In this document: positions 16,211 through 60,229 of the stretch, one piece after another
Layout of the letters: the number at the start of each line of letters is the position of its first letter
Position numbering within the stretch: position 1 is the stretch's first letter
NCBI GenBank assembly: GCA_905178155.1
Contig: CAJINV010000003.1
Location: 8,786,179-8,850,178, forward strand
Origin: Amoebophrya sp. A120
Taxonomy: Eukaryota; Protista; Dinoflagellata
Direction of reading: 5' to 3'
DNA length: 64,000 nucleotides
Translations under genes and position numbers: made by a program
Notes under the pieces: model-generated
Database searches by the model: none
What the model saw: the letters and a program-made list of their open reading frames with translations, nothing else
Told to the model about the DNA's origin: nothing

Positions 16211-18052
16211 TCAGGACTCTACTCGGTGGCATCGGTAAAGGAAAACAGTTCCGGATTCGGTCCATGACTGCGGAAGGTTCCAAATTTCCACAAGGGTTAG
16301 CACCATCGTACTCCGGGATTGGTCATTGGCCCCTCGCGCAGCTGGTGGATCCAGCGGCAGGGCCCGGAAGTCCTTGGCTTTTGGCATCTCCGATGCTGTA
16401 CCTGAGCTCTCGTATACTCTGCGTTTGCTGGGTAAGGCGGTTTCCGCTGCCCCATTTTGAACGTCACTACTACAAGAAGCGGCTTTATTATTCTTGGAAT
16501 ACACAGCTCTGTTAAGTCTCGCACGCATCCCGGCTAAAAAATCGTGCGCGCCTTCGCTTTCCCTAGACATAATGCCGGGGGTACTAGGAGTTGTTGCGCC
16601 GTCCTCGATCAAGCCACTTTCTTTACGCTTCGCCGAGCCGTTGCCTCCGCTTGTTGTTGTTGTTCTGCTTGCGGCTTCAGACTGTTGAGCAGGCGCCGCG
16701 TTGTTGCAACTGCTGCGCGACTGGCCTCCACAGTCTATTTTTTGTATGGATTCGCTTTTCCGCACTTCGTATTTACTCGCCGCGGCAATGCTTCGCGCAC
16801 GCTGCAGAGTGGCTGCGGAACCCTTCGAGAAGTAGGTCCTACTACTGTGTGGGCGTGCCGCAGTTGCCTGAGCCACGACACGCGGCGCAGCTGACAGCAG
16901 CACCATGCCATTCTCCGCACCGTCCCTTTCATCCGTACTGCTGGTATTTCTCTCACACGATTGTCCCTCCGGCAGACGACTTAGCGTGAGCAACCACCGC
17001 AAGCTTGTGGCTTCCCGCGATAGCTTCGCAAGCAGACTGAGTAGGAACTGGTCTGAAAACAGAGCCGAGGCACAGTAGATAACAGTGGCCGCACGCAAGT
17101 TTGCAGAATGCATGTCGACACATCGAAAGTCGACGCCGCCACTCAGCAGCCTGCGACTCATTCGGCGAAACACGTATGAGTTCTGCCGCTGCCAAAGGGC
17201 CGCACGCGATTCCGGCTCGACGTCTTTTGGTTTTGTCGCGCATCCAGCTGCATGATTGCTGTTCATTGCGAAACAGGTCGATGATTTTGCCGACCCTTCC
17301 TCTGGTCTTGTCGCGATTTTACGACACGGAGCTTGGGGATCCGCGTGTGGCATTACGACAGTCCATCTGCCGTCTATCAGGGCAACGTCGAAGTCAAAGT
17401 TTTGGGACTGCATGGCAGCGGACCGACGACAATGGTATGCTCCGAGACCTTTTTGCTGCAAAAAATTGGAATTGGTCGAAGGTCGTCCACCGAGCACCTG
17501 TACCCCACCAGCACAAAAACCGGCATCCAGCTGCGCATCGAGTGAAGAGAGCAACCCTGCAAGTGCCTGGCGTCCGGCGATTGCAGCGGCGTGTCGCGTT
17601 GGCCCCATCTCGACGCCGACAATAGATCCGACCTTCTGTGCCAGGAATGCCTGAAGACAGAACTTTCCTACCCCACTGCCCAAATCGAAAAACGTATCTT
17701 CTTGTGTCAACTCGAGCCGGCGGAGCAGCTTTGCGGCGGAGGCGAAGGGAATTTCGCCATAACCAGCGGCAGCACCCATTTTCCGCACCACCGAGACATC
17801 CTCAACGTGCCCCTGTAGCTGTTTCTCCTGACAATCGGGGAAGGCTTGCGCGAGTAGGTGCTTTGCCATGCTGTTCGAAAGGACATAACCATCTTGAATC
17901 TTCACTGCAGTCGAAGATTTATCATGTTGCGCACAGGCACCACCAATGATCGGTCTACCTTCCATGGGGGATGAAAAACGAACATCATCCTCGGCTCGAA
18001 TCAGAATCTCCTTGACAACCCTAACCATAGTGATCGAAATTTCTGCTTGCAC
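16211..18052 (-). CDS. Intronless DOT1-like (class I SAM-dependent) methyltransferase-domain protein; probable ATG start near 18028
   Basis: AGYGEI...LELTQEDTFFDLGSGVGKFCLQAFL...IVGVEMGPTRH and later ATVIYCASALFSDQFL match the DOT1-type fold; long low-complexity insertions. Confidence 0.75.
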   Translation of the reverse strand: MQAEISITMVRVVKEILIRAEDDVRFSSPMEGRPIIGGACAQHDKSSTAVKIQDGYVLSNSMAKHLLAQAFPDCQEKQLQGHVEDVSVVRKMGAAAGYGEIPFASAAKLLRRLELTQEDTFFDLGSGVGKFCLQAFLAQKVGSIVGVEMGPTRHAAAIAGRQALAGLLSSLDAQLDAGFCAGGVQVLGGRPSTNSNFLQQKGLGAYHCRRSAAMQSQNFDFDVALIDGRWTVVMPHADPQAPCRKIATRPEEGSAKSSTCFAMNSNHAAGCATKPKDVEPESRAALWQRQNSYVFRRMSRRLLSGGVDFRCVDMHSANLRAATVIYCASALFSDQFLLSLLAKLSREATSLRWLLTLSRLPEGQSCERNTSSTDERDGAENGMVLLSAAPRVVAQATAARPHSSRTYFSKGSAATLQRARSIAAASKYEVRKSESIQKIDCGGQSRSSCNNAAPAQQSEAASRTTTTSGGNGSAKRKESGLIEDGATTPSTPGIMSRESEGAHDFLAGMRARLNRAVYSKNNKAASCSSDVQNGAAETALPSKRRVYESSGTASEMPKAKDFRALPLDPPAARGANDQSRSTMVLTLVEIWNLPQSWTESGTVFLYRCHRVES

Positions 18053-18999
18053 AACCTTGCGAAATGCGAAGCCTCTTTTCTATACGAATGTGGAGTGGGA
18101 GTGTACCATTTTGGAAGGACCTGGAAAATACGAAAAATAAATGCAGATCTAGATTTGATTTTAATTTTAAACTAAAACTATTGCAAAAAAAAAGAAGAGA
18201 CTATCGAGTCGCAAAAAAAAAAAGAAGAGACACAAGATGACGAACATGAACTTCATAAGCGGATATCAACAAATTGAGTAATCAATGCACCACGATGACG
18301 AACATGCTTGAATCGACGTCGAATACCATATTAACGAGAGTACCTTCAGAACGACGATTGGGATTGCCTTGACGAGAGCACGAAAAAAGGTCGTGCAAGG
18401 GCTTTACACAAACGCATGGTCGGGCGAGCTTGAAGCACTGCCCTCGTTCTGCATAGAAATCCTGAACAGGGCTAATTGTCTGCACTGGATTGCATTGGGA
18501 GCCAGGCATCTCGAACGAGCACGAAAGACAAGCCCACGAAGACGAACGAGGAAGAAATATGGCCGAAATGCCAAATATAGCCGCCGTGGCGGGGGTAGTG
18601 AGGTCGGTGGCGCTTTCTTTCCCCGACCGTGGCCGCGGGCCGGCATGGTGCCTGCTTTTTATGGGACCGCCGTGCCGCAGTGGGTAAGGTTATGCCGCAC
18701 GGCATGGCGACCGGATAAAAATCATGGCAGATTTTTGGCAAATTTCCGGAAGTCCTGTCCGAAAGCCAGCCCCGATGCTATGGGGCCGATCCGGGCGCCA
18801 CGGGAGGCGCCCAAAAAGCGGAGGGAAACCGGGCCCGTAGCATGCGGATTGGCTTCGCGCATCTGGCGCGCTTTTTCTTTTTTGCGTTTCTATTTTTCGC
18901 GTCTGCGCTTTTTGCAAAGCTTCCCCCGATTAGAAACAGGCGAAAAAGCGGTCGCTCTCGCGGCCGCCCAGAATGCTCCGAAATCGCGGCCATGCCGTG

Positions 19000-19540: not shown

Positions 19541-22500
19541 TTACTCCCACTCTATCGTCGCGGGCGGCTTCGAACTACAGTCGTAGCAAACACGATTAAT
19601 ATATTCACTGCAAACATGTCTGAGTCTGGGACAAGACTGCAACAACATGATCATCACAGGTTTTATTGTGGCAGCTTTTCCAGCATGCCTCTCCCGCATG
19701 AGGCGTGCGCTCTTTGGCGGGAAGCGCATCATCACGAACATCGGGACGTTTGTGAACCTTATCGCCATCACGTTGGTAAGCGATGGACAATCATCTGCCG
19801 TCGACCAACGGGAAAAACTGTGCCTATACATCTGCCGGTTGCGGAGCAGCGCAGTTTTTTACTGTAAAAGCAAAAACAACACGCGTCAAAACTTTGGCTT
19901 GTCCTTGCAGACTCAGACATACTTGCCATGCATACAACCCCGCGCACCTCATTGATGATTCGGTTGCTGATGCGAGCCAGAAGCTTCCAATCGATGGGAT
20001 ACCAGTCGGCTGTCATGAAGTCGGAAGATTGTACCTGAAAATGATGAAAATACTATATCAGCCTTTTTTATAAGGGGGGCAGTTTCCGCAGCGCGGGGGT
20101 CTGCGGGGGTCCTTTTTGATTCGCGTTTTGCATTCGAGAACTTTTTTGCAGAACTTGCAGCCAATCACGACGGTATTCTTGATTCTGTCAGTTTTTAGCT
20201 CATAGCAGCATGCGGATTGAACGCAGACCCGATGGTATGACGACGTCACTGCTGGCACGACTATTGCGAATTGAAATTGCTAAACCATGCAAAACGCCGG
20301 AGCGCCGCCTGAAGTGCCACGATGCTAGACATGAAAACGCAGCACAGCGAAGCGTCAACCCGGCCCGCCCGTACTTTTACCCCGCCCGGGGAGGCGGCGA
20401 GGGCTGCTATAGTCCTCTGAACACACGCGCGCCTGGATCCAGAAAAAACACCAATGTGAAAAAGTTGCTGTGTACTTACTTCGATTTTTCACTTATACTT
20501 TTTGTACAGGATCATGATCTTACTCTAACACTTTTTCCTTGACACAAATACGAAAGTGTGATCTTGTCATGCTGTTTCGAAGAGTAAAACTGTGCAAAAA
20601 GTTGCTACGGACGGCTGATAGCTGACGAGAGACTTTTGGTGGTCTGTGCTGGCTCTCACAGTGGTGCGCTCGGTGTAAAACCAAAAAACTATAAAGTGAC
20701 TAGATGGCAGCGCTTGCAAGTGTAAACTTGTGGCCTTGCGTAACAGTTGATCTCATTTTTCAGTCATCAGTTTGTAATGCTACTTTGTCGCTTTTTCTAA
20801 AAACATGCCGACTTTCATCTTTGTGTTATCAAATTTTTATTGTCCACGAAATGGCCATGAGACTTCGACTTGGAATAACTGCGGCATTGGAAAAAGAAGC
20901 TACTGCTTGGACTGTCGCACTGGAAAACGAAAGTCAGTCTTTCTATTCGAATTTGGTGAGCTTTGTTTTTCTCTTTTTGATCCAGATTCTTGCACATTAA
21001 ATTTTCTATGCTATGGCCCGGGTTACTTATGTAAATGCGATTTTGTGTGTGTTGTGTGTTGTACTTGAATTCATGAATGCTGATTGTACAGTGTTACTAT
21101 TCCATTTCTCATACTGTTTTTATATATAAAAGCGGGAGTGGCGGGAGGGCTGCTCTACTTACATACAGTATTAGCGCTGAGGGTTCTAATTCTAGTAAAT
21201 AAATATAACGCGGGAAATGAATCTAAAGTAGTACTAGTAGTAATTAACAACAGGGGGATCTACGTAGGAGTTAGTAGTAGTAGTAGTAAAGCAACAAACT
21301 GAACTCGGTGAAAGCTGTGCATTAGAAACTTCGGCGCGGGGAGAGTATTGAGGGGTAGAAGAATACACCGCTCGCAACGACCATAGGGCGCCTGGAGGCA
21401 ACGATCAGAGAGCAAGGATCAACACCGAAGCAACAGGCATAGAGCATTTTACTTTTGTGAAAAAATGCTTTCTATTTCCCAAAAAAAATCCCCGACGATG
21501 AAGACATACGAGCGCGGCAATAGTCTTTCTTGAAGAGCTTGGCTCGACACGAAGAACGACTACACGACTTGAAGAAAAAAAAGGAGTTACTCTTTAACAA
21601 ACAAGATACCATCCAGCGCTGGCGGTGTCGAAAATCGTTAAAGAATAAACCAAAATGATGAAAGACGAAAGCGACAGAGTATCTTCTTTGCTAGAGTCAC
21701 TGTGGTCTTTTACGACTTCAAAAAAACAGAAAAGAGCTGCACCGAACTGAGGTAGGCGACACTATACCGGAACTTGAGACTTATTTTTGAAAATTCCATA
21801 CAAATCTCTTTTAGCCGATATCTCCGAACAATCGTAGAAAACACTTGCTTCCCGCAAGTTAATACTTCTGCTCCCGCCCTTCTTGGCGTCCTCTTATTGC
21901 TTTCACACTATAGAGGTAACAAAAAACAAAATTCCTGTTTTCTCGTCGAGGCAGCAATTGGCTTCGGTTCAGGGTTCTTCTCGGTGTGAAGTTTTCGTGT
22001 GCTTTTCTGTGGTAATTTGTAATGCATTTTGTACGTAGTGCGACGAATAGAAATATTGGTCTGACTACGAATTGTTTTTATCCCAATGAGCGAGAACTTT
22101 GCTCTTTCTGACGCTAGCGAGCTGCTACATACGAGAAATCCAAAAAAGTTTTTCTACGAGATGGAGCTGACGTAGCTACGACCCCAAAAACAGAACAGCA
22201 GCATCTTTTCCACTTTCACAAATGGATACAGTCGCTGCGTATCTGTGGATCGGGGAAGTAAAATTTCTGTACACATCCTATCCAAGTAGGTGAGTCGAAA
22301 GTTGTAAATTCTGAAGTTGTTTGTGTTAAATCCAGAAGTAAGCAGTCTAGTATTGTAAAATCTGAAATTCTAATTTGTGGCGGACCTCTGTTGCAATTGA
22401 AATTGTAAAAAGTCAAAACTGTAAAGCGCTTACCGGTTGTTCTATTTTCCACGTACTGCTATTTTGAAGTTGACAGCTGGTTATTTTTCAAGAACTGGAG

Positions 22501-25500
22501 TCGATTCAAGTAAACTTTTTATCATGAGCTTGCGAATTTGTGATGCTAGTTCTTGAGGCAAATCCGCATTACAGATTCAATCTCTGCAAGCATTGGAAAT
22601 GGAATCTGTGATGCGGATTTTCCTCAAGAAGTTCCTGTTCCTGAGGCAAATCCGCATTACAGATTACATTTCTACAAGCATTGGAAATGGAATCTGTGAT
22701 GCGGATTTTCCTCAAGAAGTTCTTGAGGCAAATCCGCATTACAGATTCCATTCCTAATGCTGAAGCTCTAAAGCTTTTTTTGGAGGCAAGTCCGCAAATG
22801 GAATTCCTCAGCATTGCAAAGCGAATCTGTAATGCGGATTTGTCTCAAGAAGACTTCTTGAGGGATTTATGTCTAGAAGACTCTCTGAGGCAAATCCGCA
22901 TTACAGATTCCGTTTCTAGTGCTGAAGTCCTCAAGTTCTTTCTTGAGGCAAGTCCGCAAATGAAATTCATCAGCAATAGAAACAGGATCTGTAATGCATT
23001 GGAAATGGAGTCTGTAGCTTGGTGGATTTGCCTCAAGAAAGAATAGGAGACTCTTCTTGAGGCAAATCCGCAGATTGCATTGCAAATAAATGCTGAAGGC
23101 ATAAGTTTTTTTTTGAGGCAAATCCGCATTACAGATTCCATTTCTAATGCTGAGGCTGAGGGACTTTGTATTGCTATTGCCGTAGAGACGGCAATACAAA
23201 AGCGCATGGCAAATTTCCGTTTTGGATTGGACATTTGTCATGGAAAACGCATCAAATTGAAACTACATGACAAATTTCCGCATTTGGGAATTTGTCATGC
23301 AAAACACATCACTCAATTGTTGAAGTGGCCATTTCAACAATTCGAGATCTGCGAATTGTTGAAATGGCCATTTCAACAATTCGGCTTGTGCAAAATGTTG
23401 AAATGGCCATTTCAACAATTCGCAGAACCCGAATTGTTGAAATGGCCATTTCAACATTTTGCACAAGCCGAATTGCAGAAATGGAATCTGTAATGCGGAT
23501 TTGCCTCAAGACCTTCTTGAGGAAAATCCGCATCACAGATTCCATTTCCAACGCTTGCAGAAATGGAATCTGTAGTGCGGATGTCTGTAATACGGAATCT
23601 GTAATGCGGATGTAGAAAGGGTGTCTGTAGTGACTACAGACACCCTTTCTAATGCTGAGGATTTCCATTTGCGGATTTGCCTCAAGACATAACTTTAGCA
23701 CTTCAGGAGCATTAGAAATGGAATCTGTAATGCGGATTTGCTTCAAGAAGTCTTCTTGACACAAATCCCCCAAGAAGTCTCAGCATTAGGAATGGAATCT
23801 GTAATGCGGATTTGCCTCAAGAACTTCTTGAGGAAAATCCGCATCACAGATTCCATTTGGAATGCTTGCAGAAATGTAATCTGTAATGAGGATTTGCCTC
23901 AAGAACTTCTTGAGGAAAATCCGCATCACAGATTCCATTTCCAATGCTTGCAGAAATGGAATCTGTAATGCGGATTTGCTTCAAGAACTTCTTGAGGAAA
24001 ATCCGCATCACAGATTCCATTTCCAACGCTTGCAGAAATGGAATCTGTAATGCGGATTTGCCTGAAGAACTTCTTGAGGAAAATCCGCATCACAGATTCC
24101 ATTTCCAACGCTTGCAGAAATGGAATCTGTAATGCGGATTTGCTTCAAGAACTTCTTGAGGAAAATCCGCATCACAGATTCCATTTCCAACGCTTGCAGA
24201 AATGGAATCTGTAATGCGGATTTGCCTGAAGAACTTCTTGAGGAAAATCCGCATCACAGATTCCATTTCCAACGCTTGCAGAAATGGAATCTGTAGTGCG
24301 GATGTCTGTAATACGGAATCTGTAATGCGGATGTAGAAAGGGTGTCTGTAGTGACTACAGACACCCTTTCTAACGCTGAGGATTTATTATTTCTACACTA
24401 CATTATTTTTATTATTTCTACAAAAGTAATGTAGTCTTTCTAACGCTGTATAAAATCTCTACCTACTCAAAACCTGTGCTTCGGCCCTATGGCGTTCTCA
24501 ACTGTTACATTCTCAACTGTTACATGGACTTGTGATGCAAGAGTGGGAAAAGTGAAAGGGGGGGCATTACGCGTCTTGCATGACAGATTTGGCACAGATT
24601 ATCATCCTGTTTGGCCCTTCCAGGATTTGTCATGCAGAACAGCTTGATCGTGTAGATGATCATACATGGCGCTTTTGCATGACAAATCATGCAACAGAGG
24701 AGAATGTAACAATTGAGAACGCCATAGGCCCTTCCCCCAGTCCTATCCTGAGCAAAAACGTCCCCGCCCCATGATCGTCAAGTAGGGAATCTAGCAACAC
24801 AAATCTCCAAGTTTTGGAAGCTGTGCATGACAAGTTTTCCCGTGCAGTGTAGTGCTGCCTGGCAAGAGAGGCCGCATGAGAAAGCCACTCTCTCGTCCTG
24901 TTTACAGCATTACAAACAAAAATGTTCCTGTCGTTGCAAATTTGCATGACAGGAGCTCTGGGGTGTTCGTGTTCGTGTACTGCCAGAGACCAAAATAAAG
25001 TCAATTACAGCTCATGGATGGGGACGCTTTTACTCAGGATAAACCCGCCCCGCTCTTCTTCGTGGGTATCAGAGTGCACACACCCCCTCCCCCTCGTTTG
25101 TGTTGGTTGCATGAACAGCAAAACAAGCGCTGGCAAAGATGCAGCTTCTGTGTGTCAAATTCCAAGCAGACTGCGCTACAACTTTCTACGAATAGCACTA
25201 CGTAGCGTAGTGCTGTTTTGGATTCGGGAATCTGTCACGCAAGTAGTGCCTTCATCATCATCATCATTATCACGCGTTGCCTTTTGCTTGACAAATGCGG
25301 GCTCGGGGGCGCAGGGCACTTTCATAGGGGAGCTGCCAATCGTACACCAAAACCTTCCGGCCGTCCGTTGCCCCGGTAAAGGTGTGCCGCTTATCGTTCT
25401 CGCTGTAGCTTAGTTTTGCAACTCCCGTGTTGGTGGTCGCCGCAAACCCTATCCTGCGCAAAAATATCGCACCCGTAGTAATTGCAATCATGCATTACAA

Positions 25501-28500
25501 ATTTCCTTGATGTAGTAAATTAGAACTAGTGTAGTAACGAGCGATAGTTTTTAGAAGAAACAGCTAGCATCGTATGTAAAATTGCAACTCGAACTTTCAA
25601 AAATGACCTATTTCCACGAGCAATGCAGTTTGTTTATTAACCCCGTCGATTGTGTAGCAACATCGCGCGAGAGGTTTTTTTTATAAACAAGGTAAATCCG
25701 CATTACAAATCTTATGTCTCACGCAGAGGAAATTTGTAATGCATTTAGTATACGAGTGCGATGCTTTTGCATTGCATACACCCGCAGTGGCGGCAAATGC
25801 ACCCCTTCCCCGCCAGGGGCGAGGAAGGGCGCACAAAGCCACGCATGGAGCTGTCAGGTTTGAAATCGTCAAAGTTGAAGTAGTTTGCTATGCATAAAAT
25901 GCCTGTCTTGCTGAGTAGGCAAGGGAGGCAGATTGTGAGCCTGTTTCGGGGTAGAAAAAGAGCTGCTCAAGCAGCATGACAACAGGCGTCCTCCTTGCCC
26001 TAAGAGAGTTACAAACTGCATTCTGACTCTAAATACTCAGCTTTGTCATGCGCCGCGTAGACATTGGGCTTGCAACTGGCATCGATTTTATGCATTACAA
26101 GTTATCTCTACTTCAACTCTGCTGATTTCAACTCTGACACATCCATACCATGGCCCGCGAGAATCGTCCACAGGGACTGCAACTCGCCCGGGGAGGCGGG
26201 TCTTTTCAGCGGTTTTGCCCGGGATGACTTTTTGGCCGTTCTTATCCTGTGTAAAAACGTCCCCACCCCAGAGTTGTCATGCAAATGTGCAATGACAAGA
26301 ACATTTGTAATGCGGATGAGCATGAGAGGCATTTCCAATCTTGTTTTGGACTTTGTAATGCTGTGAACAGGATGAGAGGCTTGTTTTCTCATGCGGCTGT
26401 CCTTGCTAAACAGCACGACAATACAGATGGAAACTTGTCATGCAAAACTCCCAAAACTTGGAAATTTGTGTTCCAGATTTACTAACTTGACTATGGGGTG
26501 GGGACGTTTTTACACAGGATAGTTCTGATGATTGACATCGAGCTCGCGGCGAGCATATCAAAGGTAAAAGGGTCTGGGTCTGGAAAAACATGCTGGCTTT
26601 CATGGCGCAGAAGGTGTGGCATGGAAGCTCTAGCGTCACAGGTCTCGACAAGCTTCCGCACTGCCGAATCCGCATGACAAATTCCTCATTTTGGTGACAG
26701 AAAGTGTGCAGCTTTTGCGACCTATGCATGAGAGATTTTTCTGTATTCTGAAATGCGCATCACAAGTTTGGCGCTTCCAGACCCAGACACTTTTGCACCT
26801 GATACCGTCCGTCGTCAGACGAGGTGCTGAAATCGTCGCAACTCAGCGGGCATCCTGTGCAAAAGTATCGCACTCATAGTGATTGCAGTTGTCACGCGTT
26901 ACAAATATAAGTTTTTATTTTCTGAAGGCAAACCCGCATCACAAATTCCGCTACCAATGCTGCGGACCTTTGATGTGATGCAGATGCAAAAGCAATTCGT
27001 ACTAGTTTGATTCTTTTGCAATAGATAACGGCTCTGCCTGCCATCCTTTAGACAAAACCCCCCACCCCACAGCCAAGACTGCACCTCTATCACAACTGCA
27101 AAGAAATTCTGGCCCTTGCGCATGACAAATTGCTGCCCTGCTCCTCGTTGCGAAAGTTACAAACAGCATCAAAAAAGCCTATACGCGGGCGGCAGGCCAA
27201 ATAGTTTGGCCCGGGCATGCAAATACGCACGGCAGGAATGGGGCGGGGTGTTTTTGCAAAGGATACCGCCGCCGCCGCGTGTTCCTGTTTCATGCGCGAC
27301 GTCAAAGACGGCGGGGGCGAGGCTGGGGCGAAGCTGGGGCGGAGCTGGCGGGCCGGGCGGCGCGTCGGCTCCACCGGCGTGCTCCCGCTCCTCCCGACGG
27401 CCGTGCTGACAATCGCCGCGGGGCTGCTGCCGCTCCTTTTCATGATTGCCAGCGAAGTAGTGGTAAAGTCTGAGTAGAAAGGAAAGTCCTAAAGTCGGAG
27501 TAGAAAGCAAAATCCTAAATGGAAGCTTGAGTAGAGCACTGTAGCCGGGCGGGCTGAGAACTGAATGTATATAAGGACAAGGAATAGCAACAGTAGCAGT
27601 AGAGATTCCAAGCAAGATAGAGATACACACCACGAGAAAACGACACCGAATTCACAAAAAAAAGGAAAAAAAACATGGACTTCGCGATTGTAAAGCTACC
27701 AACCAAAAGAAACAGGAGCAACCGACTCAGACCCTGAGTACAATAAAAAAGTCATGATTTGCCGTGCGTAAAATAAAAAATTCGCAAACTTCTGCTCATC
27801 TCATACTCATGCATACGTAGTGCATGAAGTCGAAACTAAATAAGGTGCCTGCTCATACGCCCAAACGAAAAAACAACTCACCGACTTGCCATGCGCAAAG
27901 CACAGTTGCAGCTTCAATGTAATTGAAATAATCTTACGGGGGTTTGTCTATACCGAAAGTAACTCACACCACATGTCCTTCTTCAGTGTTCCCAACTTTA
28001 AACATTTCTTCTCCCCGCCCGCCCAGAAACAGCAAGACTTTGCTTCACTTTTCTGGCACCTGCATGCATCGGCTCAGCCGTCCGGAGAAGCTCTGAGCCG
28101 TTAGCTGCGGGCTGCGATTGTCACAATTAACAACCACAACGACGCACCCAGGGGCCGCCCGCGTGGAGGACACGCATGCAGGAATTTTTGGCCCCCTAGA
28201 TGCCACCTGGCGGTGGCATCCGCCATCCCAAAAACTACACCGAGCAGTTACAAATACGCCACAAGGGCGCCGCACAAAGAGCACGGCGGTGGCACTATGG
28301 GCAGTTCCATGGCGCTTGCAAAGCGCTAGAGTCCCACCGTGATTGACAAACATAATACATCTTTTGTTTTTTTCTCCTTTAGAATGAATCGAGCCCCGCA
28401 GACCCCCGCAGACCCCCGGGGACCCCCGCCCCCCGCAGCTTATAAAAATAACTGCTATATGATGTCACTGAAAACAAGTGCAGTTGACGTTCTTGTTCGT

Positions 28501-31500
28501 GTCGACGTAGTAGTACTTACAGCTAACCCTTGCGCAGCTTCATTTTTCTCGAGGAATTGATATTTTTCGTGTGGCGCATTCCGTTTTGAATGCAAGAAAC
28601 GCCATCACATATATGTTTTACTTTCACGACGCACAACGAGAACGGAAACTGACAGCAGCAGCAGCAGCACCACACGCCGTGCGGGGATTGTCACGGATAA
28701 CAGAAACGGAGCTGCTCGCATGCCGTGGAGCACGACCGCATATCACTAGCTTAATAGCTGTAAATTTATCACATCGCCAAGAAAAAATAATCATACGTAT
28801 ATCTATAAAGAGACTACGTGACTGGTGATTTCATTTTTCTACCGCTCTGAGGGCGACGGTCATCTCGTAAGTTCGCGCGTCTCCCATCACCCCTACAGTT
28901 TTGCATTCCGGCATAAGCACCGCAAAGGCCTGCCCCACCTCGTTATAGACCCCGGCCTCTTTCAAGCTAGAAATGAAAATGTTGTCCGTATAGAGGGGAA
29001 GTGAGTTGTGATCTTTGGCAGTGCTGCTAACCAGTAACAGGAGTATGCCATGCGCTTACGCCTTGCATTGTCATGCAAATAAAAGCATTAGCATACGAAA
29101 AAAAAATAAAATAAATCAACTTCGTCAGTCGCGGAGCGATTTTTGCATTGGCCTTGGGTTTTGCTTTTGGTAGGCTACCTTTTGCCTGACAATTAAAACC
29201 GTGGCCGTGGAAGCAAGTCCGCACGGAGAAATGGAATTCTTCTTGGGGGTGGTAGTAGTGCAGGACAAGATCAACCCCCTGCTTCCCTCCATAGTCTGCC
29301 TCGCGCAAGACGTCCGCCCGCTCTTTTGTGACGTCGCCGCCGACAATTCGAATCGCGAGTCCGGGCCCGGGAGTATGGCCTTCTCGTCAGACGTTGTCGT
29401 GTGGCCATCAGTTGCGTTTCGTTTTTTCTGCTTTGATGTCATGCAAAATCTTTTCCACGACCTTCCGCTCAAAGCTGCCTCGTCGCGCGACCAGGCAGCT
29501 GGTCGCGCGACGCGCCAAACTGCGTTGACATTCGTGCCAATCTCGTCAACACAAAAAGCATGGCAGAAAGATAAAACAAAAACCGCGGCCTCCAGCTCCT
29601 CCATGAAGAAGACACACACGCAGAAATTCTACAACGAAAGTCCACACGACAAGGACGTCTGAGGAGGCCATAGGGAAAAGGGTGGCGCATGATGCTATCT
29701 TCATGCAGACCCAGTTCGCGGCCGAGCGAACGCACCTCGTCCTTGAACAGCATCCGGGGAGTATTGTGAGGAAAAATCCCCCCTCCCCATATCGAAAACG
29801 AAATTTGTGATGCTGTATTTGAGTACACAGTTCAGATTTGTCTTCCTGGAGAGGACTGCAGACCCATATCAAGCCTGAGTAGAGAGGCTTTGACCTGGAC
29901 GCTTGGCATGAAAAGCGTCCGTGCTGTAGGCTCAACAGCATGACAAACCGCCTGTAGAATGCGGCGGATCCTGTGGAGTTGCCTTCATGCAACACAGAGA
30001 CGATTTGTGGTCGTAAATCAGCAACACAAATTTTCGAAAGCGTACCTTTTCAATATGGGGTGGGGGGATTTTTCCTTTTGATAGAGAGGCTCAATCAGTC
30101 CCTTGAACTTCAACCTCGTAGTTTCATGAAGATCAAAATGCCCGCCTCAGGGTCACAGTCGCAGAAGTGTAGTTGCGCGATGTTGAATGAAAAGAGAGCT
30201 CAGATGAAAATAATGACGAGGATGCAGAAGCAGAATCACTACTACTGCTCCGCCCGGTTCGGGGGCCGGCGCGCTCGTGGGTTTGGGACTTATAGTAGAA
30301 GTTCAGAGCTCCTTCACACTATCGCTATTTTCATATATCAGATTAGTGTCATAGAGATGCGCTTAGAAACTTGAGTTGATGACCACGCGCACACTGCTAG
30401 CATACTAAGTATTGGCGACTGGTGGTGAACTCGCACCCGCCTCCTGCAATCGTCGCGTGTAGCTGTAGCTGCATGCCGACACCCGGGTTCGCGCCCGAGC
30501 GTGGGCAGGCACGGATGCTGCGTAAAAAACAGGGCGCCGCTTGGTCGCCGCTTCGCGCTTCACGGCGACAGAGAGAAGCTGCGCAGCGTACTTCTCACAA
30601 CAAGATCAGGCCAAAACCAAGTGGCTTAGGGCTTGAGCGTCAGCTTAACCTAAAGCTATGACGCAAGCACAACTTGCGCTTTGATCACTATCGTTTTTTT
30701 CATAGCTTCTTTAGCATGATACGCATATGCGGAAATTGTAATTACGAGACCCCAATCCGCGGAGCTGCAGGTGCAGGTGGTCAGGATCTATAGCATTTGA
30801 TAAATGGGTATGGGTTGTGTAAAAAAGGGGCGCCGGCGACCCTGTACCTTTCGGGAAGCCCCCCAACATTGTGGTGGGACTTTATGACGGAAGAAGGACC
30901 CTTGAAGCTTGTAGACTCAATGACGTCCGGGTACAGGGTTCCCTGCAACAAGTAAGTGGACTCAATGGGCAAATCCGACTCGCGAATCGCCCGCTCGAAG
31001 GCGTCTATAAAGAGCTTGCCGATGATTTTTCGTTTCCTCTCAGGTTCCGTAACACCGTGCAAAGCTTGATAGAATTCAGCGCTCGCGTCAACGCATTGAA
31101 GCTTCAATCCGGGTATGTGTTGGGTTAGTCGCGTCTGCACCTCCTGTGCCTCGTCCTTGCGCAGCAACCCGGTGTCAATGAGAAACGGGCGGAACCGTTC
31201 TCCCAAGGCCCGGTGCATCAAGCCAGCGGCCACAGAGCTATCTACTCCTCCGGAAATACTATGGCAGCGTCAGGATTTAAATCGTCAAAGTTGAAATAGC
31301 TTGTAATGCATAAAATCGATAACAGGCGGAGGCCCAATTTCTAAGCGGCGCATGACAAATTTTCCGAGCACCGGATTCCGATTTGTCATGCTGGTTGGGC
31401 ACAGACGACTGCTTTTGTCATGCAACTTTTGCAGCTCTATTTCAAACCCTAAACAGGCTGACAGTGGGTCTCACTTGCCATCCAGGCAAGACAAGCACTT

Positions 31501-34500
31501 CACGCCTTTGCCTTTCATTTTATGCATGACAAATCATTTCAACCTTGTCAATTTCAATCCTGACAGTTCCATAAATACCGCCGAGCACGTAATCCGTGGG
31601 GCCCACTTGCACGTATCCTGTGCAAAAGTATCGCATTCGTATAAACGTCAGTCTTGTTGCATTGCAAATCTTTTTCTTAAGGCAAATCCGCATTACAAAT
31701 TTTATTTCTCATGCTGAGAAAATTTGTAATGCATTTATACGAGTACGATACTTTTGCAGTTCATAGCTCGCGGATCTTGACAATCTCAAGCTCGCAAAAA
31801 TTTTTCATGGTCCACTTGGCGAAGGAAAATGCGTTACGTGCAACAGGTTTCCTGCTCCCATCTGTTTTAGATTTCGGATTCAAGCTCCTCAAAAGAAAAC
31901 CGTATTGAAAATGGGCAGATCCGACTCTTCGGTTTGACGAACGGCATGGGCACTTTTTCATTTCTTTCATATATTTGTATGGATGAATCGCCTGCGACTA
32001 CTTCAGGGATTCCCTGGCGACCGAGCGAAACGGGCCCGGCCCTGCTGCTAGTCCGTCGAGTCCATCCCGCCAGCAATGACTAGGAAGGCAGTACTAAGAT
32101 GTTCAAGTGTCCAGGTTTACAACCCTGCCGGCTGATGCAGTGGAGAGAATACTTCTATGTGTGTATCATACAAAATGTACTGCAGCTGCTGACTATTGGC
32201 ACTTGTTTTACGAGGCACATTACTTTGAAGATTACGCCTATATCATGAGCATGTGCATGACGACGCATCACGTACATGTTCCTACTAATGCAACTATTCA
32301 AAGTTCTTGTACCTATTGTGGTCGTTGGGGACTTGGCTTCTTTTTCAATGGACGCAGCACCAGCAGACGACGCGTAGGCGGACGCGTTTTGAAGACTGCT
32401 TACCAGGAAGTTTTTTATGATCTGCTTTCCGCAGTGAGTGTGCGTTACTTCGGGATGAAATTGCACGCCGAAGAAGTTTATGACATGCAAAAATGTCTGA
32501 ACCTGGTTGGTTGAAAAGCCCCTTCGTCATTCAGCTTTCGGAAAAGACGCGTGATTGCTCGGAAGGGCGTCACATGTCTTGCGAAGGCTACTACAGCTTC
32601 TTAACGCCTGCTCCTATTGCGCATGGCAAAGAACAAAGCCGTCCTCTGCCTCTGCGTTCGAGCAATAATTTCTCGTGCGATTGTTGCAAGTCAGCATTGA
32701 AAATTCTGCCTTTGGCTCCAGGTCCAGACCCAGACAGTAGATTTGCGATGCATAAAGTTCTTCTCCTCGTGAAAGATGGCCGCGTGCTCTGTCCTGTGGA
32801 AAAACATACAACCCGTGCCATATTGATATCAGTGAGTCATGCTTAACCGTCTGCGCTACCGAGCCTGCGAAGGTGGGGGTGCGGGATCCATTTCCATGGG
32901 ATGCACATCAAAGCACAATGCTTATTTTTCATCATGCTAATCTGGATGCGTATGCCCAGCAGACAGAGGACGCTTGCGTATCTCATGTGAGTATGGCTCG
33001 TCCGCATGAGCGCCATTATCTGATCATGTTTGGAAATATGTCATGCTGTCATCAAAGTGGTAACACGGTGGATTTTTCGTGATGGGCCTTCACTACCTAG
33101 GCGTGACCATAGTACATAGTACGATATTTGTACTAGTCACGCGTTAGTCCAAGGAGTTCCCTTGACTTTGTGTAGCAGAATGCCCATTTTGACTGTAATT
33201 GACCGGGAACGTCGTAGTTTTTGCACAGGATATACTCGCAGTTATCCGTACTCCCCAAAACCTCAAAACCCGGAGCCATCTTCGTGACTTTGTCGCCGTG
33301 GGACATCCACAATTGACTGCCGGTCGGAACGTCGGAGAACAGACTCGTCGCCGCACTCACGTGGTCGTTCGGATTGTTCTTGCCAAAACGATCAACCACC
33401 TGAAGTTCTGCATACCCAAATTCGCGTTGGCTGTCGAACAAAAAACGTGAACTTTTCATGCCCGTCGTCGACAGAAGTTCTATGTTTTCATACTATTTTC
33501 CAAAACGAAAAACGACAGCGTATGAGCTTTCAATGACATTGAAAAACCTACGATGTTTTTTCTAAAACTAAAACCTAAAACACTAACTACCACCTGTTGA
33601 CAACGGCAGTGGCTGGTTCGTCTAGTTTTTCTTTTTGTATTTCCTTCTCCTTTTCCACAGCATTGCCATTGGAAAACGAAAATCAAAAGACAAATTCAAT
33701 ATAGTGAGTAGATGACCACCACGCCCACCACGAAACGTCGTTGCAGGGATGATGAAACGAGAGCCATACACAGGTCTTGGATCACGAAGATCACCTCCGC
33801 CACACAAACATTCTCATCCATGACCATGCATCCATGGAGTTCCTCCTTCTCGACGTCGTGTGGAAAGTTCAATTTTTTTGCATACTGGGATCCGGGACTC
33901 ACTTTCCCACCAAGCGCCCACATCATCTCTTGCAATCCGTAGCATATACCTATGATTTTCATCATGAAGGTAACCATTGACTTAGAGGATGCATATCGTC
34001 AGTGTAGTGGTCTACTTGCAAAAAGATTGGCAACGCCAGATGCACATCCTGTCTCTAGCATTTATATCGGCATTCTCGATTTTGACACGACGCCCCCCAT
34101 TGATCACCTCTACCTCGGGCTCGGAATATTCTTCAAATTAATAAAGTTGTAATTTCATTTCATACACCAACACCTTATCAAGTTTGACGAGTCCTCTTGT
34201 CCTCGAACAAGTACAGAGACAAGTATCGAGTACTCGCATCGCAATTAAGCTAAAACAAAACGCAAACTATATACTACCTAGGACGGGGATCTGTTTATCG
34301 TAAAGCACTTGCCAAAGCTCCGGCTTCAGGTGCGGGGCCTCCTCTTCGTATACACTACTGGGTCCGCCGGATAGAATGACGGCTTTGGGAGCGAAGCTCT
34401 CCAGATATTGTTCGTCTATCATTTGCAAACATGTCTGGGTCTAGAGATTTTTACCAGGGTTGTCATGCATATTTTGCATGACCAGCGATACCTGCAACGC

Positions 34501-35031
34501 ATGGCCTAGCATCACAGATTTTTGGAGGGCTTCCTGTTGCCTATTCCGCGTGACAAATGCCCCCTCCACGTAGGACAAACCCCAGCAGACATATTTGCAG
34601 TTGATATCGTCAACATTGCGACAACTTATCAGCTCGGAATACGCACCCAGCTCGCGAATCCGCCGGCAGATCAAGTGGGTCACCTGCGATCCAAAGTCGA
34701 TATGGGAGCGTCAGGGCGGATAGAGTCACCAAATAAATGAGAATGGGAGGGTACTAGAGCATGAAGATGAAGCGCGCGAGAGAATAAACTCGCTGCGTTT
34801 ATTCTGGGGGGTGTTTTGATGCCCCACACAGCATTAAAGAGTCAGCATGCGTTCAAAAAGCAATAACGAGTTCAAATGGTGGAAACGAAAATGGAAACGG
34901 AGGTGTGATGATCGCTTTGGCTTTTATCTTAGTGCGGAAGGCTGAAACCGAATCATTTTCATTTTGGCGATTCCCTAACTGACGCTTCCATAGTCAACGA
35001 CTGCAACTTTGTCTCCTGTGATGCCCTCCAT
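19541..35031 (-). CDS. GMPS: GMP synthase (glutamine-hydrolysing), about 16 exons
   Basis: Spliced motifs [159 protein letters not shown]. About 12 TIR introns; GT-AG introns 30115-30847 and 20035-28842. Confidence 0.96.
19602..19934. mobile_element. TIR/DR introner (GMPS last intron)
   Basis: TATGCATGGCAAGTATGTCTGAGTCTG / TATTCACTGCAAACATGTCTGAGTCTG; flanks GGTTG/TATTA; restores G(V/I)NRVCYD. Confidence 0.88.
22545..24380. repeat. Fold-back repeat region: inverted arms built from an 82-bp palindromic unit, with a central cluster of 28-bp palindromes
   Basis: Unit GAAATGGAATCTGTAATGCGGATTTGCCTCAAGAACTTCTTGAGGAAAATCCGCATCACAGATTCCATTTCCAACGCTTGCA in tandem at ~23790-24290; 22545-23150 carries inverted copies; AATTGTTGAAATGGCCATTTCAACAATT-type palindromes x4 at 23315-23460; hairpin AGAAAGGGTGTCTGTAGTGACTACAGACACCCTTTCT at ~23614 and ~24335. 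Confidence 0.92.
24467..27443 (-). CDS. Hidden nested hypothetical protein (190 aa, 10 exons, 9 TIR introners) inside the GMPS intron
   Basis: Exons 27443-27266, 27036-27028, 26845-26805, 26550-26522, 26237-26148, 25838-25779, 25444-25327, 25061-25042, 24738-24727 and 24482-24467 sum to 573 nt and read open from ATG to TGA when each element+5 nt is removed. Confidence 0.65.
24488..24726. mobile_element. TIR/DR introner (nested gene)
   Basis: Near-perfect TIR TATGGCGTTCTCAA(C/T)TGTTACATTCTC; perfect DR GGCCC. Confidence 0.92.
24744..25041. mobile_element. TIR introner (nested gene), inverted paralogue of 26243-26521
   Basis: TATCCTGAGCAAAAACGTCCCC / TATCCTGAGTAAAAGCGTCCCC; sense DR GGGTT/GGACT. 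Confidence 0.88.
25067..25326. mobile_element. TIR introner (nested gene)
   Basis: TATCAGAGTGCACACACCCCC / TATGAAAGTGCCCTGCGCCCCC; sense DR TCCCC/CCCAC. Confidence 0.75.
25450..25778. mobile_element. TIR introner (nested gene)
   Basis: TATCCTGCGCAAAAATATCGCACCCGTA / TATGCAATGCAAAAGCATCGCACTCGTA; sense DR GGGTG/GGGTT. Confidence 0.85.
25844..26147. mobile_element. TIR introner (nested gene), inverted paralogue of 31260-31573
   Basis: CATGGAGCTGTCAGGTTTGAAATC / TATGGATGTGTCAGAGTTGAAATC; sense DR CATGG/CGTGG. Confidence 0.88.
26243..26521. mobile_element. TIR/DR introner (nested gene)
   Basis: Perfect TIR TATCCTGTGTAAAAACGTCCCCACCCCA; perfect DR GTTCT. Confidence 0.93.
26556..26804. mobile_element. 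TIR introner (nested gene)
   Basis: TATCAAAGGTAAAAGGGTCTGGGTCTGGAA / TATCAGGTGCAAAAGTGTCTGGGTCTGGAA; DR degenerate (GACGG/TGCTC). Confidence 0.85.
26851..27027. mobile_element. TIR introner (nested gene)
   Basis: CATCCTGTGCAAAAGTATC / TATCTATTGCAAAAGAATC; sense DR GCCGT/CCCGC. Confidence 0.78.
27042..27265. mobile_element. TIR introner (nested gene)
   Basis: CATCCTTTAGACAAAACCCCCCACCCC / TATCCTTTGCAAAAACACCCCGCCCC; sense DR GGCGG/GCAGG. Confidence 0.78.
28989..29293. mobile_element. TIR/DR introner (GMPS)
   Basis: TATGGAGGGAAGC / TATAGAGGGGAAGT; DR CAGAC/CGGAC; joins LREAD-NIFI. Confidence 0.88.
29374..29672. mobile_element. TIR/DR introner (GMPS)
   Basis: TATGGCCTCCTCAGACGT / TATGGCCTTCTCGTCAGACGT; DR TTCCC/CTCCC; restores RHPFP-GPGLA. 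Confidence 0.92.
29762..30083. mobile_element. TIR/DR introner (GMPS)
   Basis: TATCAAAAGGAAAAATCCCCCCACCCCATATTGAAAA / TATTGTGAGGAAAAATCCCCCCTCCCCATATCGAAAA; DR CTCTC/CTCCC; restores [13 protein letters not shown]. Confidence 0.92.
31260..31573. mobile_element. TIR/DR introner (GMPS)
   Basis: ~57-nt TIRs TATGG(A/C)A..GTCAGGATT.AAAT.G.CAA.GTTGAAAT; perfect DR GTATT; restores LGGI-SGGVDS. Confidence 0.93.
31614..31765. mobile_element. TIR/DR introner (GMPS)
   Basis: TATGAACTGCAAAAGTATCGTACTCGTATAAA / TATCCTGTGCAAAAGTATCGCATTCGTATAAA; DR CGAGC/CGTGC; restores IRE-QVG. Confidence 0.92.
32479..32754. mobile_element. TIR/DR introner (GMPS)
   Basis: TATGCATCGCAAAT / TATGACATGCAAAA; perfect DR AACTT; restores [13 protein letters not shown]. 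Confidence 0.88.
32790..33232. mobile_element. TIR/DR introner (GMPS)
   Basis: TATCCTGTGCAAAAAC / TGTCCTGTGGAAAAAC; DR GAGTA/GAGCA; restores NCEY-AAIF. Confidence 0.88.
33432..33884. mobile_element. Degenerate TIR introner (GMPS)
   Basis: TATGCAAAAAAATTGAACTTT / TGTCGAACAAAAAACGTGAACTTT; DR CCCAG/GCCAA; restores GSQ-REFGYA. Confidence 0.75.
33951..34273. mobile_element. Introner-like intron that is also readable as GT-AG (33950-34277) (GMPS)
   Basis: TAT...ATA ends with DR GGTAG/GGTAT but weak TIR; restores PVLG-ICYG. Confidence 0.55.
34417..34606. mobile_element. TIR/DR introner (GMPS)
   Basis: TATCAACTGCAAATATGTCTG / TATCATTTGCAAACATGTCTG; perfect DR GACGA; joins RNVD-EQYL. Confidence 0.92.
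34701..34992. mobile_element. TIR/DR introner (GMPS intron 1)
   Basis: TATGGAAGCGTCAG / TATGGGAGCGTCAG; DR TTGAC/TCGAC; restores VVD-FGSQ. Confidence 0.92.
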
Positions 35032-36861
35032 CCTGGAGGAAGGCGGTAACTATAGAGGGGACAAAAGGATTGACTTTACGTCAGAGTGCTGCGGCTAGCC
35101 GCCCTAGGGAAACCCGCTGTCATCCATGCAGAGTTGACGCAATGTTCCGCAGTTTTGGCATGCAGAAAGCTCAAATAAAAAATCAACCTTACTTAATGCG
35201 CCAACGGTCTGGAGTGATTTTGATTTCAATTTTTGTGCACACTCTGCATTGTAAAAGATACACCAGGAGCTGCCACTGCGTCCGCGTCGGCAGACCCACA
35301 TGACACGGTTTGCGTAGGCACTCTAGACGATCATCAATGACCACATCACCTCCATAGTGACGAGGAGGAGCTGCTGCTCGCTGTGCTGCGCGTCGACGCT
35401 TCTACAGAAGGAGCGGGCTCCTGATGCAACATTTGCCACAAAAATCGAGACTGTTAAACCGGTAAATGCGTTGTAGTTCAATATTGTTTTCCATTCAAAC
35501 TCAAAAACAATACTGCCTAACAAGGAAAACAAAATCCACGAAGAACATGATTGAAAAGCAAATGCGGAAAAGAAGAAGCTAGACTAGTAAGTCCTTCCTG
35601 CTCCTCGTCCTGCAACTGTCCTACGTTGATACTGGCAGGCTGATAGTATGTGACCGCGTTCTGTTCTTCTTCTTTTCCCGAACTGCTACAGCTAGTACGG
35701 AGTATCGAGTATTTCAAACAGAAGCTCTTAAAGTGTAATGCAGTCACCGAATGTACCTACTAAAAGTGCAAGTAGCTGCAAGGTTGCGGCTGGAATACGA
35801 TGAATGCCACTGTCGTATTGCTGAAACTTGCCCTCGTACTTTTGGAATCAGCATTTGACTCTGCTCTCGTGTTGATTTTTTGATGATCATATTCAGAAGT
35901 GAGAGTGACGATCGACTTCGACTACGTGATCGATTTTTACATCGGCGCGCGCGAGTACGCAAATACTAATCGTGATCTGCAGCTTTTCCCAGGATTGCAC
36001 GACAGACTAAAAAGTCTTACTCTTGACAGACTGGCTGCACGACAGGCGGCGAACAAGCTGAAGCACACTGCACATGTAAATTAGTCTTCGGCGGTCATCT
36101 CTTCAGCGCGCTCTGCCATCTCCTCCATCATTTCATATCATTCCAATCCTCTGCGTCCTCTGGCAGAAAAAGGATACTGGTGGTAAGTAACTTCAGTTTG
36201 TTTGTAGTTTCTTTATCTTTTACAAAAGTTACATAAACCTTGATTCCAGTGCCAGTTTGTCGGCCATAGTTCCGGTTCCGCGCACACTTCCGCCCCTGTC
36301 TCACTACATAATACTAACTCCTATTGCCGGCGTCGGTTTCGGTTTTGCTAAATATCGTTCGTACACGTAAAAGATAACCATAGTCCTAATTTCGACGCAC
36401 CTGCTCAAGGGCGATCGCATCCGAGATGACCACAGCAAGGTCTCCTCGCTGACCCTGCTCAGCGGACCACTGGAGCATATGTGTAAATTAAGGTACTTTT
36501 GTTCTCAATCTCATTTCTGATACTCACTATTTCAGCTTGGTAATCGTAAGGGAATAAAATAGCAACACTCTCAAAAGTAGGATGGCAGCGCGGCTCCAGC
36601 CCGAGTGGGCAGAGCGACGTGGTCATACTCTCAGCTACAGAGTTGATCGACGAGCAAAGGCGTTGTCCATCGAGCCAATTCTGTTGTCAAACCTAACTAC
36701 ATTGATATTACTGGCCTCCGCTACGTAGCGGATCTTGTTTGTACTTTTTTGTTCTGACGCAAGTACAGTCTGTTGCTTCCTTCTGTTCATCCTGCTTTGA
36801 GAGGCTCTCAAAGAAACTACTACTTAGATCCTGGACGTACAAAGTGATCTTATTTTCAGGC

Positions 36862-58800: not shown

Positions 58801-59088
58801 GCGCCCTGGAAGGAGTTGTGTCTTTTTCTGAGCGTAGCGTAGTAAGCGCGGCTGCGGGTTGTAGAGCCTGTTGTTTATATCTCGACAGGCTTGCCCAAAC
58901 TGTGCCGAAATTTCTTGCAGCTCCTGCAACTCCCCCCGAATCGCCTGCGTGACCCTATCAGACATCATGATGTCTTTGCGGTCATTGCTTTTGTTTTTCC
59001 GCAGGAACGCCTCTACCGGTGCAGATGCGGCGGCTCTTGATGCAGGAGGGGGCGCAGGTCTGTTCTTATCTGTATTTTTTATTTTCAA
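52821..59088 (-). CDS. Very large (>1900 aa) low-complexity hypothetical protein with an IQ-like motif; both ends incomplete (further exons likely toward ~51500 and ~60050)
   Basis: ORFs 55867-59088 and 53034-55796 fuse in frame (EALVL-ARDTISG) after removing introner 55799-56034. A second introner leads to exon 52878-52821 (ANRWIRARGAVVQLQRKFR) ending at a GTAAAG donor. Confidence 0.65.
52884..53068. mobile_element. Probable TIR introner
   Basis: TATGCGAGCGCGCTAG / TATGCAGCAGCTCTG; DR ACTAC/ACCGT; frame continues into the IQ-like exon. Confidence 0.6.
55799..56034. mobile_element. TIR introner joining the two largest ORFs
   Basis: TATGCATTGCAAAAGCTCCTGCATC / CATCCTGTGCAAAAGTATCTGCATC; DR TGTTG/CATTG. 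Confidence 0.88.
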
Positions 59089-60229
59089 GAAAAATTATAT
59101 GCAAGTGCTACTTGTAATGCAAGACAACGACCTCGCTCTTGAGAAAACGCGAGAGAAGCCGGCTACTTTTGTACCAGATGCGTGCTGCCCAGGTATTAAC
59201 ACTTCTATGTCTGATCTCATCTGTTACTGTTGCACTGTTGCTTTCGGAATACCTGTGTTGTAATGCGAATAAAGCTACTGCATGATGGTCTAGTAGCCCG
59301 TCCAGCCTTGTTACAGAGTATCGATACTCGAAAATGCACGATGATCCAATGAAATTTGGATTGCAAATCAAGCAAACGAGCTTTGCATGTTCCTGGTGCT
59401 GCTGCTGTTCATGCCGCGAGACCAGCGAATATTGTCACCGGGCCGGAGGTAGACCCGTTCGCGACCTTTCAACATGATCTTACATACATACGTATATATG
59501 ATTAAAACCAGAAAAAAAAGCTGCTAGTATTCCCTGAGGCAGCGATTTGTATTTGCTAAAGTTTTTTCTGTTCTCCAAGTCAAATTGGAGGCCGAAGCTG
59601 AAGTGGCTCCTTGCGGGGTTCACTATTCAAATATGTATATACAGCGTATGCTGCAGCTGCCGCTCCTGCGTCGTGGAGAACCAGCAACAGTATTCGACCC
59701 GAGTGAGCCCTTCAGCGGCAACATTCTTCCACCTGCCTTCAACATCATCTTTCGAAGTTCGTCGAAGGGAACACACCCATCGCGAACGGCTAGGCTGCTA
59801 ATGCTGTCGAAGGCCGACCGCCACTCTTCTGCTTCGCTGCGGCTTCTCGTTGCGGCAGAGGGCCGTCCCGCAGCACTTGCTCCATTTATCATCCGATGAT
59901 AATTGTGATTGTCGGAGAGCTCCCGCGCCAGCATGTTGTTGTTCGGACGTGGTCGAGCGGTCACCCATACATCCCACAGACCTCCCAGAAATGCACCAGC
60001 CGAAGCAAGATTGACCTTCTCGCACAGTAGACGTCCCTGTCTTGCCGACAACGAAGAGAGGCAGTAAAAAGAAGTAGTTCCTGCAATACAATCAAACTGA
60101 CGGGTTGCGAGGAGTGAGAAATCTCATTCGTACAGTGCTAGCGCATGATACTGGAACCCGTGTGGACTCAATTTGATGCTGCATAAGTTTGTATATAGTT
60201 CTTGATTCTCGATACAAATCTTCTCTTTT

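Follow-up and report, generated by a model that had tools for sequence, protein, structure and literature searches.

In Amoebophrya sp. A120, a marine parasitic dinoflagellate, non-canonical introns make up more than 60% of the total, among them introner elements that carry inverted as well as direct repeats (PMC7789003). Tens of introners in one gene have already been described for this organism (PMC12130899), and the part of Farhat et al. (2021) that is cited reports no putative transposase in A120 (PMC7789003). Introners inside a larger mobile element with inverted repeats are known from Polinton-like and giant-virus elements of dinoflagellates (PMC12166617), and genes inside spliceosomal introns from mirusviruses (PMC12768974). 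Pack-TIR (TIR, terminal inverted repeat) and Pack-MULE elements consist of a DNA transposon shell around gene-like sequence, which is multiplied by transposition; some Pack-TIRs are transcribed and yield protein (Ssk-FB4) (PMC8277862). Here we describe a 190-codon gene of A120 that is split by nine introners and enclosed in an 8.4-kb element with inverted ends, located in an intron of GMP synthase, a housekeeping gene. The window, that is the whole stretch of DNA analysed, has a length of 64,000 nucleotides (contig CAJINV010000003.1 of assembly GCA_905178155.1, positions 8,786,179 to 8,850,178 of the forward strand); all positions below are those of the window.

The locus shares with the described introners of A120 the inverted ends, the short direct repeats over the boundaries and the non-canonical introns (PMC7789003, PMC12130899); it differs in that the introners lie in a gene within a mobile-type element. 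Their density is 15.7 per kb of coding DNA, compared with a reported average of 1.42 per kb, and the cited parts of these two papers contain no comparable example. As in the Polinton-like and giant-virus elements, introners are found inside a larger mobile-type element with inverted repeats, but here the large element holds one small gene and no viral or transposition gene, and the main text of that work does not name Amoebophrya (PMC12166617). A gene-like interior between the ends of one TIR element, together with a target duplication, is common to Pack-TIRs and this locus. The element would behave like a multicopy Pack-TIR, but it is not filed there, since a parent copy of the gene is their defining criterion and no parent gene was identified; moreover, its interior is longer than the 5 kb used as a working limit for that group, and introner DNA makes up about four-fifths of the cargo span (PMC8277862). 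The 6-bp target duplication and the inverted ends are as in hAT6, but there is no transposase to classify the element by; IS3EU also makes a 6-bp duplication, but the ends of the element are CAG...CTG and not TAYGG...CCRTA (PMC12730594). A codon scan of both strands of the element gave no coding-like stretch other than the 190-codon gene, and thus no hAT transposase and no polymerase, integrase or capsid gene, which sets the element apart from the Polinton-like group; a continuation of the gene beyond the repeat arrays was not found either. The foldback transposon Tetris is reportedly an inverted-repeat element with internal tandem repeats, its arrays being derived from the transposon interior; satellite-like arrays in an inverted-repeat element are thus common to both, but here the array unit resembles introner interiors and a gene is present in addition. 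A literature search did not give an introner-split cargo gene in a TIR element of Amoebophrya (it took in 19 of 58 rows for A120 in the table of Gozashti et al. and, of Farhat et al., no supplement), and a preprint (10.1101/2020.10.14.339549) makes no mention of nested, autonomous, transposase, cargo or Amoebophrya.

The introner-split gene and its splice rule

The 190-codon gene is probably the cargo of a DNA transposon, likely a non-autonomous one, that would exist in roughly five copies, including the one in the intron of GMP synthase. When the nine introners are removed, a single minus-strand frame of 573 nt (190 amino acids) runs from the ATG at 27443 to the TGA at 24467, and the only stop is the terminal one. 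A first-pass annotation, made from the letters alone, had proposed this frame by removing nine TIR elements with 5 nt each, had put the introner share of the locus at about 80% and had placed the gene in a GMP synthase intron on the strand of the host. All nine elements were located; the introner share of 24467-27443 was measured as 79%, and the gene lies wholly within the canonical 8.8-kb GT-AG intron 20035..28842, on the same (minus) strand as the host gene.

The ten exons have a median length of 35 nt and are given here in the order of transcription. Exon 1 (27267..27443), 177 nt from the ATG, is followed by intron 1 (27038..27266), which has GT...AG ends, by the 9-nt exon 2 (27029..27037) and by intron 2 (26847..27028), the interior of which is similar to the tandem arrays described below. 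Exon 3 (26806..26846, 41 nt) and exon 4 (26523..26551, 29 nt) are separated by intron 3 (26552..26805), which has a strong hairpin (z −3.55). Intron 4 (26239..26522; ends matching at 25/25 positions, flanking repeat at 5/5) leads to exon 5 (26149..26238, 90 nt), and intron 5 (25840..26148) is 68% similar to the GMP synthase introner 31260-31572. The CxxC motif lies in exon 6 (25780..25839, 60 nt); intron 6 (25446..25779) matches the GMP synthase introner 31679-31765 at 86% over 90 nt. Exon 7 (25328..25445, 118 nt) ends with a faint likeness to half a WD40 blade and is followed by intron 7 (25063..25327), whose ends are the most decayed of all (14/25). The 20-nt exon 8 (25043..25062) and the 12-nt exon 9 (24728..24739) enclose intron 8 (24740..25042), which belongs to the family of intron 4 in reverse orientation (79%), and intron 9 (24484..24727; ends 24/25, repeat 5/5) precedes exon 10 (24467..24483), which extends to the TGA.

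By the features tested (inverted repeats of 8-20 nt at the intron ends, direct repeats of 3-5 nt across the boundaries, repetition elsewhere in the genome) the nine small elements in these introns are Amoebophrya A120 introners. Read on the minus strand, all of them start with TAT (27265-27042, 27027-26851, 26804-26556, 26521-26243, 26147-25844, 25778-25450, 25326-25067, 25041-24744 and 24726-24488), and the right ends are ATA in six and ATG in three; TAT is thus kept at 9/9 left ends versus drift at 3/9 right ends, numbers too small to count. The terminal inverted match covers 14-25 of 25 positions in every element, and a 5-nt flanking repeat matches at 3-5 of 5 positions in eight of the nine; its decay is distributed over all five positions and is little informative. 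In a blind scan for such elements 8/9 were recovered, compared with 3-4 hits per shuffled 64-kb strand, and two weak candidates at 28562 and 21113 fall within this chance rate. Introns 4 and 9 appear young and introns 3 and 7 old. All nine insertions fall within 379 nt; exon 1 has none, and neither has the ∼5.4 kb of the element that is non-coding. The ends of the elements at 24488 and 26243 are found joined to other flanks in contigs, as loose ends. Several small elements of the window have ends of the IS3EU type (TATGG...CCATA, within TAYGG...CCRTA), but with 5-bp and not 6-bp repeats (24488-24726, 29374-29672, 31260-31573, 34701-34992, 44567-44980 and 1944-2302).

The splice rule takes the intron from 1 nt before the TAT to 4 nt after the far end of the introner, and the host gene shows that this rule is real. 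Applied to GMP synthase (coding span 19541..35432, minus strand), it rebuilds the annotated A120 protein (P0002) at 608/608 residues across 12 introners and 4 canonical introns; P0002 is matched at 100% identity by one exon of this gene in the window. Runs X1-X4 are RNA-like contigs of one sample, X2 being taken as RNA by guess. A spliced X2 contig over six exons has offsets that agree with the gene model except for a constant 3 nt, and this difference vanishes once one seemingly GT-AG intron is treated as an introner; introner removal is thereby shown for GMP synthase. The intron in question (33428-33885) looks GT...AG, yet its cut lies 3 nt beyond that point, where the introner rule places it in agreement with both the annotated protein and the RNA-like contig. 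The register that rebuilds GMP synthase retains the fifth base of the right-hand repeat, and residue 136 of the hidden protein, which the first-pass annotation had left as Phe or Cys, is therefore Phe. Removal by the rule left an open frame at 13 of the 13 other introners tested in the window, which is a weak test over 147 nt. For the introner at 12216-12534 the minus register closes all frames and the plus register leaves one open, although the adjoining exons read in the minus direction; this introner may have a shifted boundary.

The first-pass annotation had left room for a chance open frame. Openness by itself is no more than moderately unusual: of 19,683 alternative combinations of frames, 1,458 (7.4%) are free of internal stops, and the same holds for 0.75% of the per-exon shuffles when read in frame 0 and for 2.2% in any of the three frames. 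Chance is excluded by the codon signal rather than by openness alone, and the hidden frame is not due to chance. The GC contents of the first, second and third codon positions (GC1/2/3) are 0.57/0.62/0.79, and the excess at GC3 is reached by 0/200,000 per-exon shuffles; the corresponding numbers are 23/50,000 for exon 1 alone and 7/50,000 for exons 2-10 alone. The predicted third position is the most GC-rich one in 7/10 exons (1, 3, 4, 5, 6, 7 and 10), the remainder being the tiny exons 2, 8 and 9 (9, 20 and 12 nt). Scored with a host-codon model trained on nine frames from the same window, the hidden frame is the best of six and is equalled by 0/20,000 shuffles. The frame, which can be recovered only with the introner rule, as had been claimed, is thus a genuine coding frame by its codon signal.

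The carrier element and its probable copy number

The large element spans 20059..28454 (8,396 nt), has CAG...CTG inverted ends and contains the hidden gene and tandem arrays of 88-, 39- and 82-nt units (22549..24334). Its left inverted end (28391..28454, minus strand) matches the right end (20059..20111, plus strand) at 13/16 terminal nt, and the two share a 17-nt GC-rich motif; for this inverted 17-mer just inside both ends the chance expectation is 0.00. A perfect 6-bp direct repeat, ATATAG, flanks the element on both sides (left copy 28455..28460, right copy 20053..20058, both read on the minus strand) and is a putative target-site duplication. The element fills nearly the whole host intron, which would measure ∼0.4 kb without it. 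The host intron 28842-20035 is spliced in runs X1 and X2, and a loose end at 28840 is the next exon. The first-pass annotation had offered a nested or a cargo gene, and the cargo option fits best with a gene inside a larger inverted-repeat element that has a 6-bp target repeat and raised depth.

The copy number was assessed from run X5, the kind of which is not on record and the contigs of which are continuous through introns. Contig depth over the hidden gene was 175, 141, 183 and 205, compared with 38, 43, 43 and 42 for four GMP synthase contigs, a ratio of 3.4-4.9, and the contig of low depth stops at 28426, which is within the element by roughly one word length from its left end. These depths suggest that the element has likely been multiplied to about five near-identical copies. 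The high-depth contigs cross exon-introner borders, and the longest of them, with 1,394 nt across exons 1-3, shows a single changed letter and a single gap relative to the window; the copies would therefore be very young, with introners already in place at the spanned borders. No parent copy of the gene was present in the window, and the exon searches of databases gave no match. Two further observations concern the left part of the element. Over 28090-28456 the summed X5 depth rises up to 762, and an RNA-like piece shows 7 differences at 28160-28256, which hints at a larger family sharing the left end. Upstream of the ATG lies a 26-nt repeat, and 27420-27569 is thinly covered in each of X1-X4 when 88% likeness is required, whereas at 95% X2 has no cover there; sequence related to it may be present elsewhere.

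From the anatomy and the depth we infer the copy number, the mobility and the order of events as follows. The gene would first have been transcribed and translated for long enough to acquire a host-like codon bias and introners of several families and ages, each of them tolerated because the host removes it by the splice rule. The complete unit, including 1 kb of DNA upstream of it, would then have been enclosed between the CAG...CTG ends. A transposase from elsewhere, predicted to be of a 6-bp-duplicating type such as hAT6, would recently have copied this unit with the introners in place, and one copy would have inserted 24 nt before the end of a host intron of ∼0.4 kb, across which the host still splices. 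As the element encodes nothing else, it would be a non-autonomous transposon that was multiplied after the arrival of the introners.

Several observations weigh against this reading. The raised depth was seen for the left half of the element only (20059-24419 was not covered by the comparison), and the copy number comes from the contig depth of one run, depth being a proxy and one locus being known; a collapsed tandem duplication could give equal depth. The 3' end of the gene is its least certain part: exons 8 and 9 are open whichever frame is read, so that the frame of exons 8-10 and the stop are based on the splice rule alone, and with GT donors on both sides of the stop the true 3' end may differ. 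The introner at 26804 (intron 3) has a flanking repeat decayed to 1/5, and intron 7 folds no better than shuffles (z −1.2). Finally, sequence searches with exon 7 (40 amino acids; 0/4 candidates scored) and exon 1 (0/282 candidates scored) gave no credible homologue; database queries were single exons, and for these two exons the sequence searches were over longer proteins only.

Expression was assessed from raw RNA runs and from the RNA-like contigs. The raw runs X9 and X10 have 1 and 0 reads on 24420-35400, too few to test expression. In X1-X4 the three bins of 26970-27419 lack cover at 88% likeness, and no predicted junction of the hidden gene is among the 15 joints listed; as such contigs drop rare forms, this speaks neither for nor against expression. 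Contigs of all four RNA-like runs cover 28452-28869, keeping the first 390 nt of the host intron and ending right after the CAG of the element, and two of them extend 26-27 further letters past the CAG of its left end. The contig end at 28452 could be due to premature poly(A), to use of the CAG as acceptor or to a non-canonical donor at 28451.

The protein product and alternative explanations

The hidden protein has 190 amino acids and an isoelectric point of 10.1, with 47% Ser/Pro/Ala in the first 104 residues; Cys 129, 131 and 134 and His 115, 133, 156 and 188 lie in the second half, and the CxxC motif already pointed out in the first-pass annotation is formed by Cys 131 and 134. Such a product would be basic, its first half being rich in Ser, Pro and Ala and its second half compact with Cys and His, and is likely nuclear; it is somewhat more likely a passenger than a transposition helper. 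The second half may have some likeness to BED or FAR1/WRKY-type fingers. A BED zinc finger has a CxxC followed by two closely spaced His; after Cys 131/134 the only His are at 156 and 188, and this assignment was rejected. No Pfam match on single exons ties the CxxC to any family. For the end of exon 7, Pfam Prp19 (E-value 0.15), PDB 8ro0_W (E-value 0.044) and a score of 7.8 bits on a profile that is circular for exon 7 were obtained; a WD40 propeller, which consists of several blades in tandem, was rejected, as the likeness amounts to a single half-blade below significance. Also rejected were three hits of a HMMER scan of exon 7, unrelated repeat proteins with scores summed over 6-9 repeats, and a viral locus (L001) with 39% to the low-complexity exon 1, a likely composition match. 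The Atlas gave no usable match, and two exact DNA patterns had 0 metagenome matches. In line with the expectation that the product is missing from annotation, no match was found in a protein database that holds the annotated A120 GMP synthase, such blanks being weak evidence.

The gene could instead serve the element itself as a helper, its product being a small DNA-binding protein that binds to a hairpin motif of arrays and introners and assists in mobilising them, with the element as parent or partner of the introner families. The motif GCAT[GTC]ACA[AG] is indeed common to both, with 27 occurrences in the arrays, 21 in the nine nested introners and 12 in 11 introners of GMP synthase (the remainder of the window has 13), and the longer array units (82 and 88 nt) match introner interiors at 79-89% over 35-48 nt. 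A basic protein with a CxxC, searches of exons 1 and 7 that gave no annotated host parent, and the report of no putative transposase in A120 cited above are also as expected of a helper. Nevertheless we consider it unlikely. There is no DDE or other catalytic domain, and 190 amino acids leave no room for one; the His spacing is not that of a BED finger. The ends and targets differ, the element having CAG...CTG with a 6-bp repeat and the introners TAT...ATA with a 5-bp repeat, and the likeness may run from introner to array, arrays derived from a transposon interior reportedly being known from Tetris. An extension of the same idea, in which the element is the mobile partner of the A120 introners, the arrays are binding sites and the 190-residue product acts in trans in introner movement or removal, we hold to be quite improbable.

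The second alternative is an ordinary nested host gene at a single locus, expressed like its neighbours, for which the inverted ends and the 6-bp repeat would be chance and the depth would stem from a collapsed local duplication. Host-like codon use, introns of the host type and a pyrimidine-rich stretch with AG sites before the ATG agree with it, but the depth changes just at the left inverted end, and an inverted 17-mer together with a perfect 6-bp repeat is unlikely by chance; this explanation therefore appears highly doubtful. A hotspot of introner insertion in non-coding DNA of high GC content, with a frame left open by chance, has in its favour that introners prefer GC-rich sites (PMC9860276), the 7.4% of open frame combinations and the lack of a homologue, but it is largely refuted and of negligible probability, as the codon signals are beyond all shuffles (0/200,000 and 0/20,000), arise separately in exon 1 and in exons 2-10 with the phase kept across junctions, and the most GC-rich part, exon 1, has no insertion.

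Other loci of the window include an intron-free minus-strand frame with a DOT1 histone methyltransferase domain (16214-18079; Pfam E-value 1.5e-10), an exon of a HYDIN/CFAP65-like Ig-domain gene (49496-50443) with further introners downstream, and two long frames of 942 and 1,075 amino acids (53037-59094), which have no Pfam match and are joined in frame by the introner 55799-56034. Other tandem arrays, at 9210-9776 (17-nt unit, 29 times) and 61569-62370 (94-nt unit, 9 times), may belong to further large elements.

Nested introners and the biology of A120

With the gene as transposon cargo, the locus has four levels of nesting: introner in gene, gene in transposon, transposon in intron. Should further copies be confirmed, the nine introners would be multiplied jointly by hitchhiking on an ordinary DNA transposon, a route for which the literature found has viral elements only. 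The locus also marks a blind spot of annotation, in that exons with a median of 35 nt escape frame-based homology search and RNA-based annotation misses a quiet gene. If the 190-residue product did act on the introners, transposition genes hidden by introner shredding would explain why none has been found in A120. The exact splice rule recovers this gene, and its genome-wide use, repeats included, makes the question of how introners are mobilised in A120 testable.

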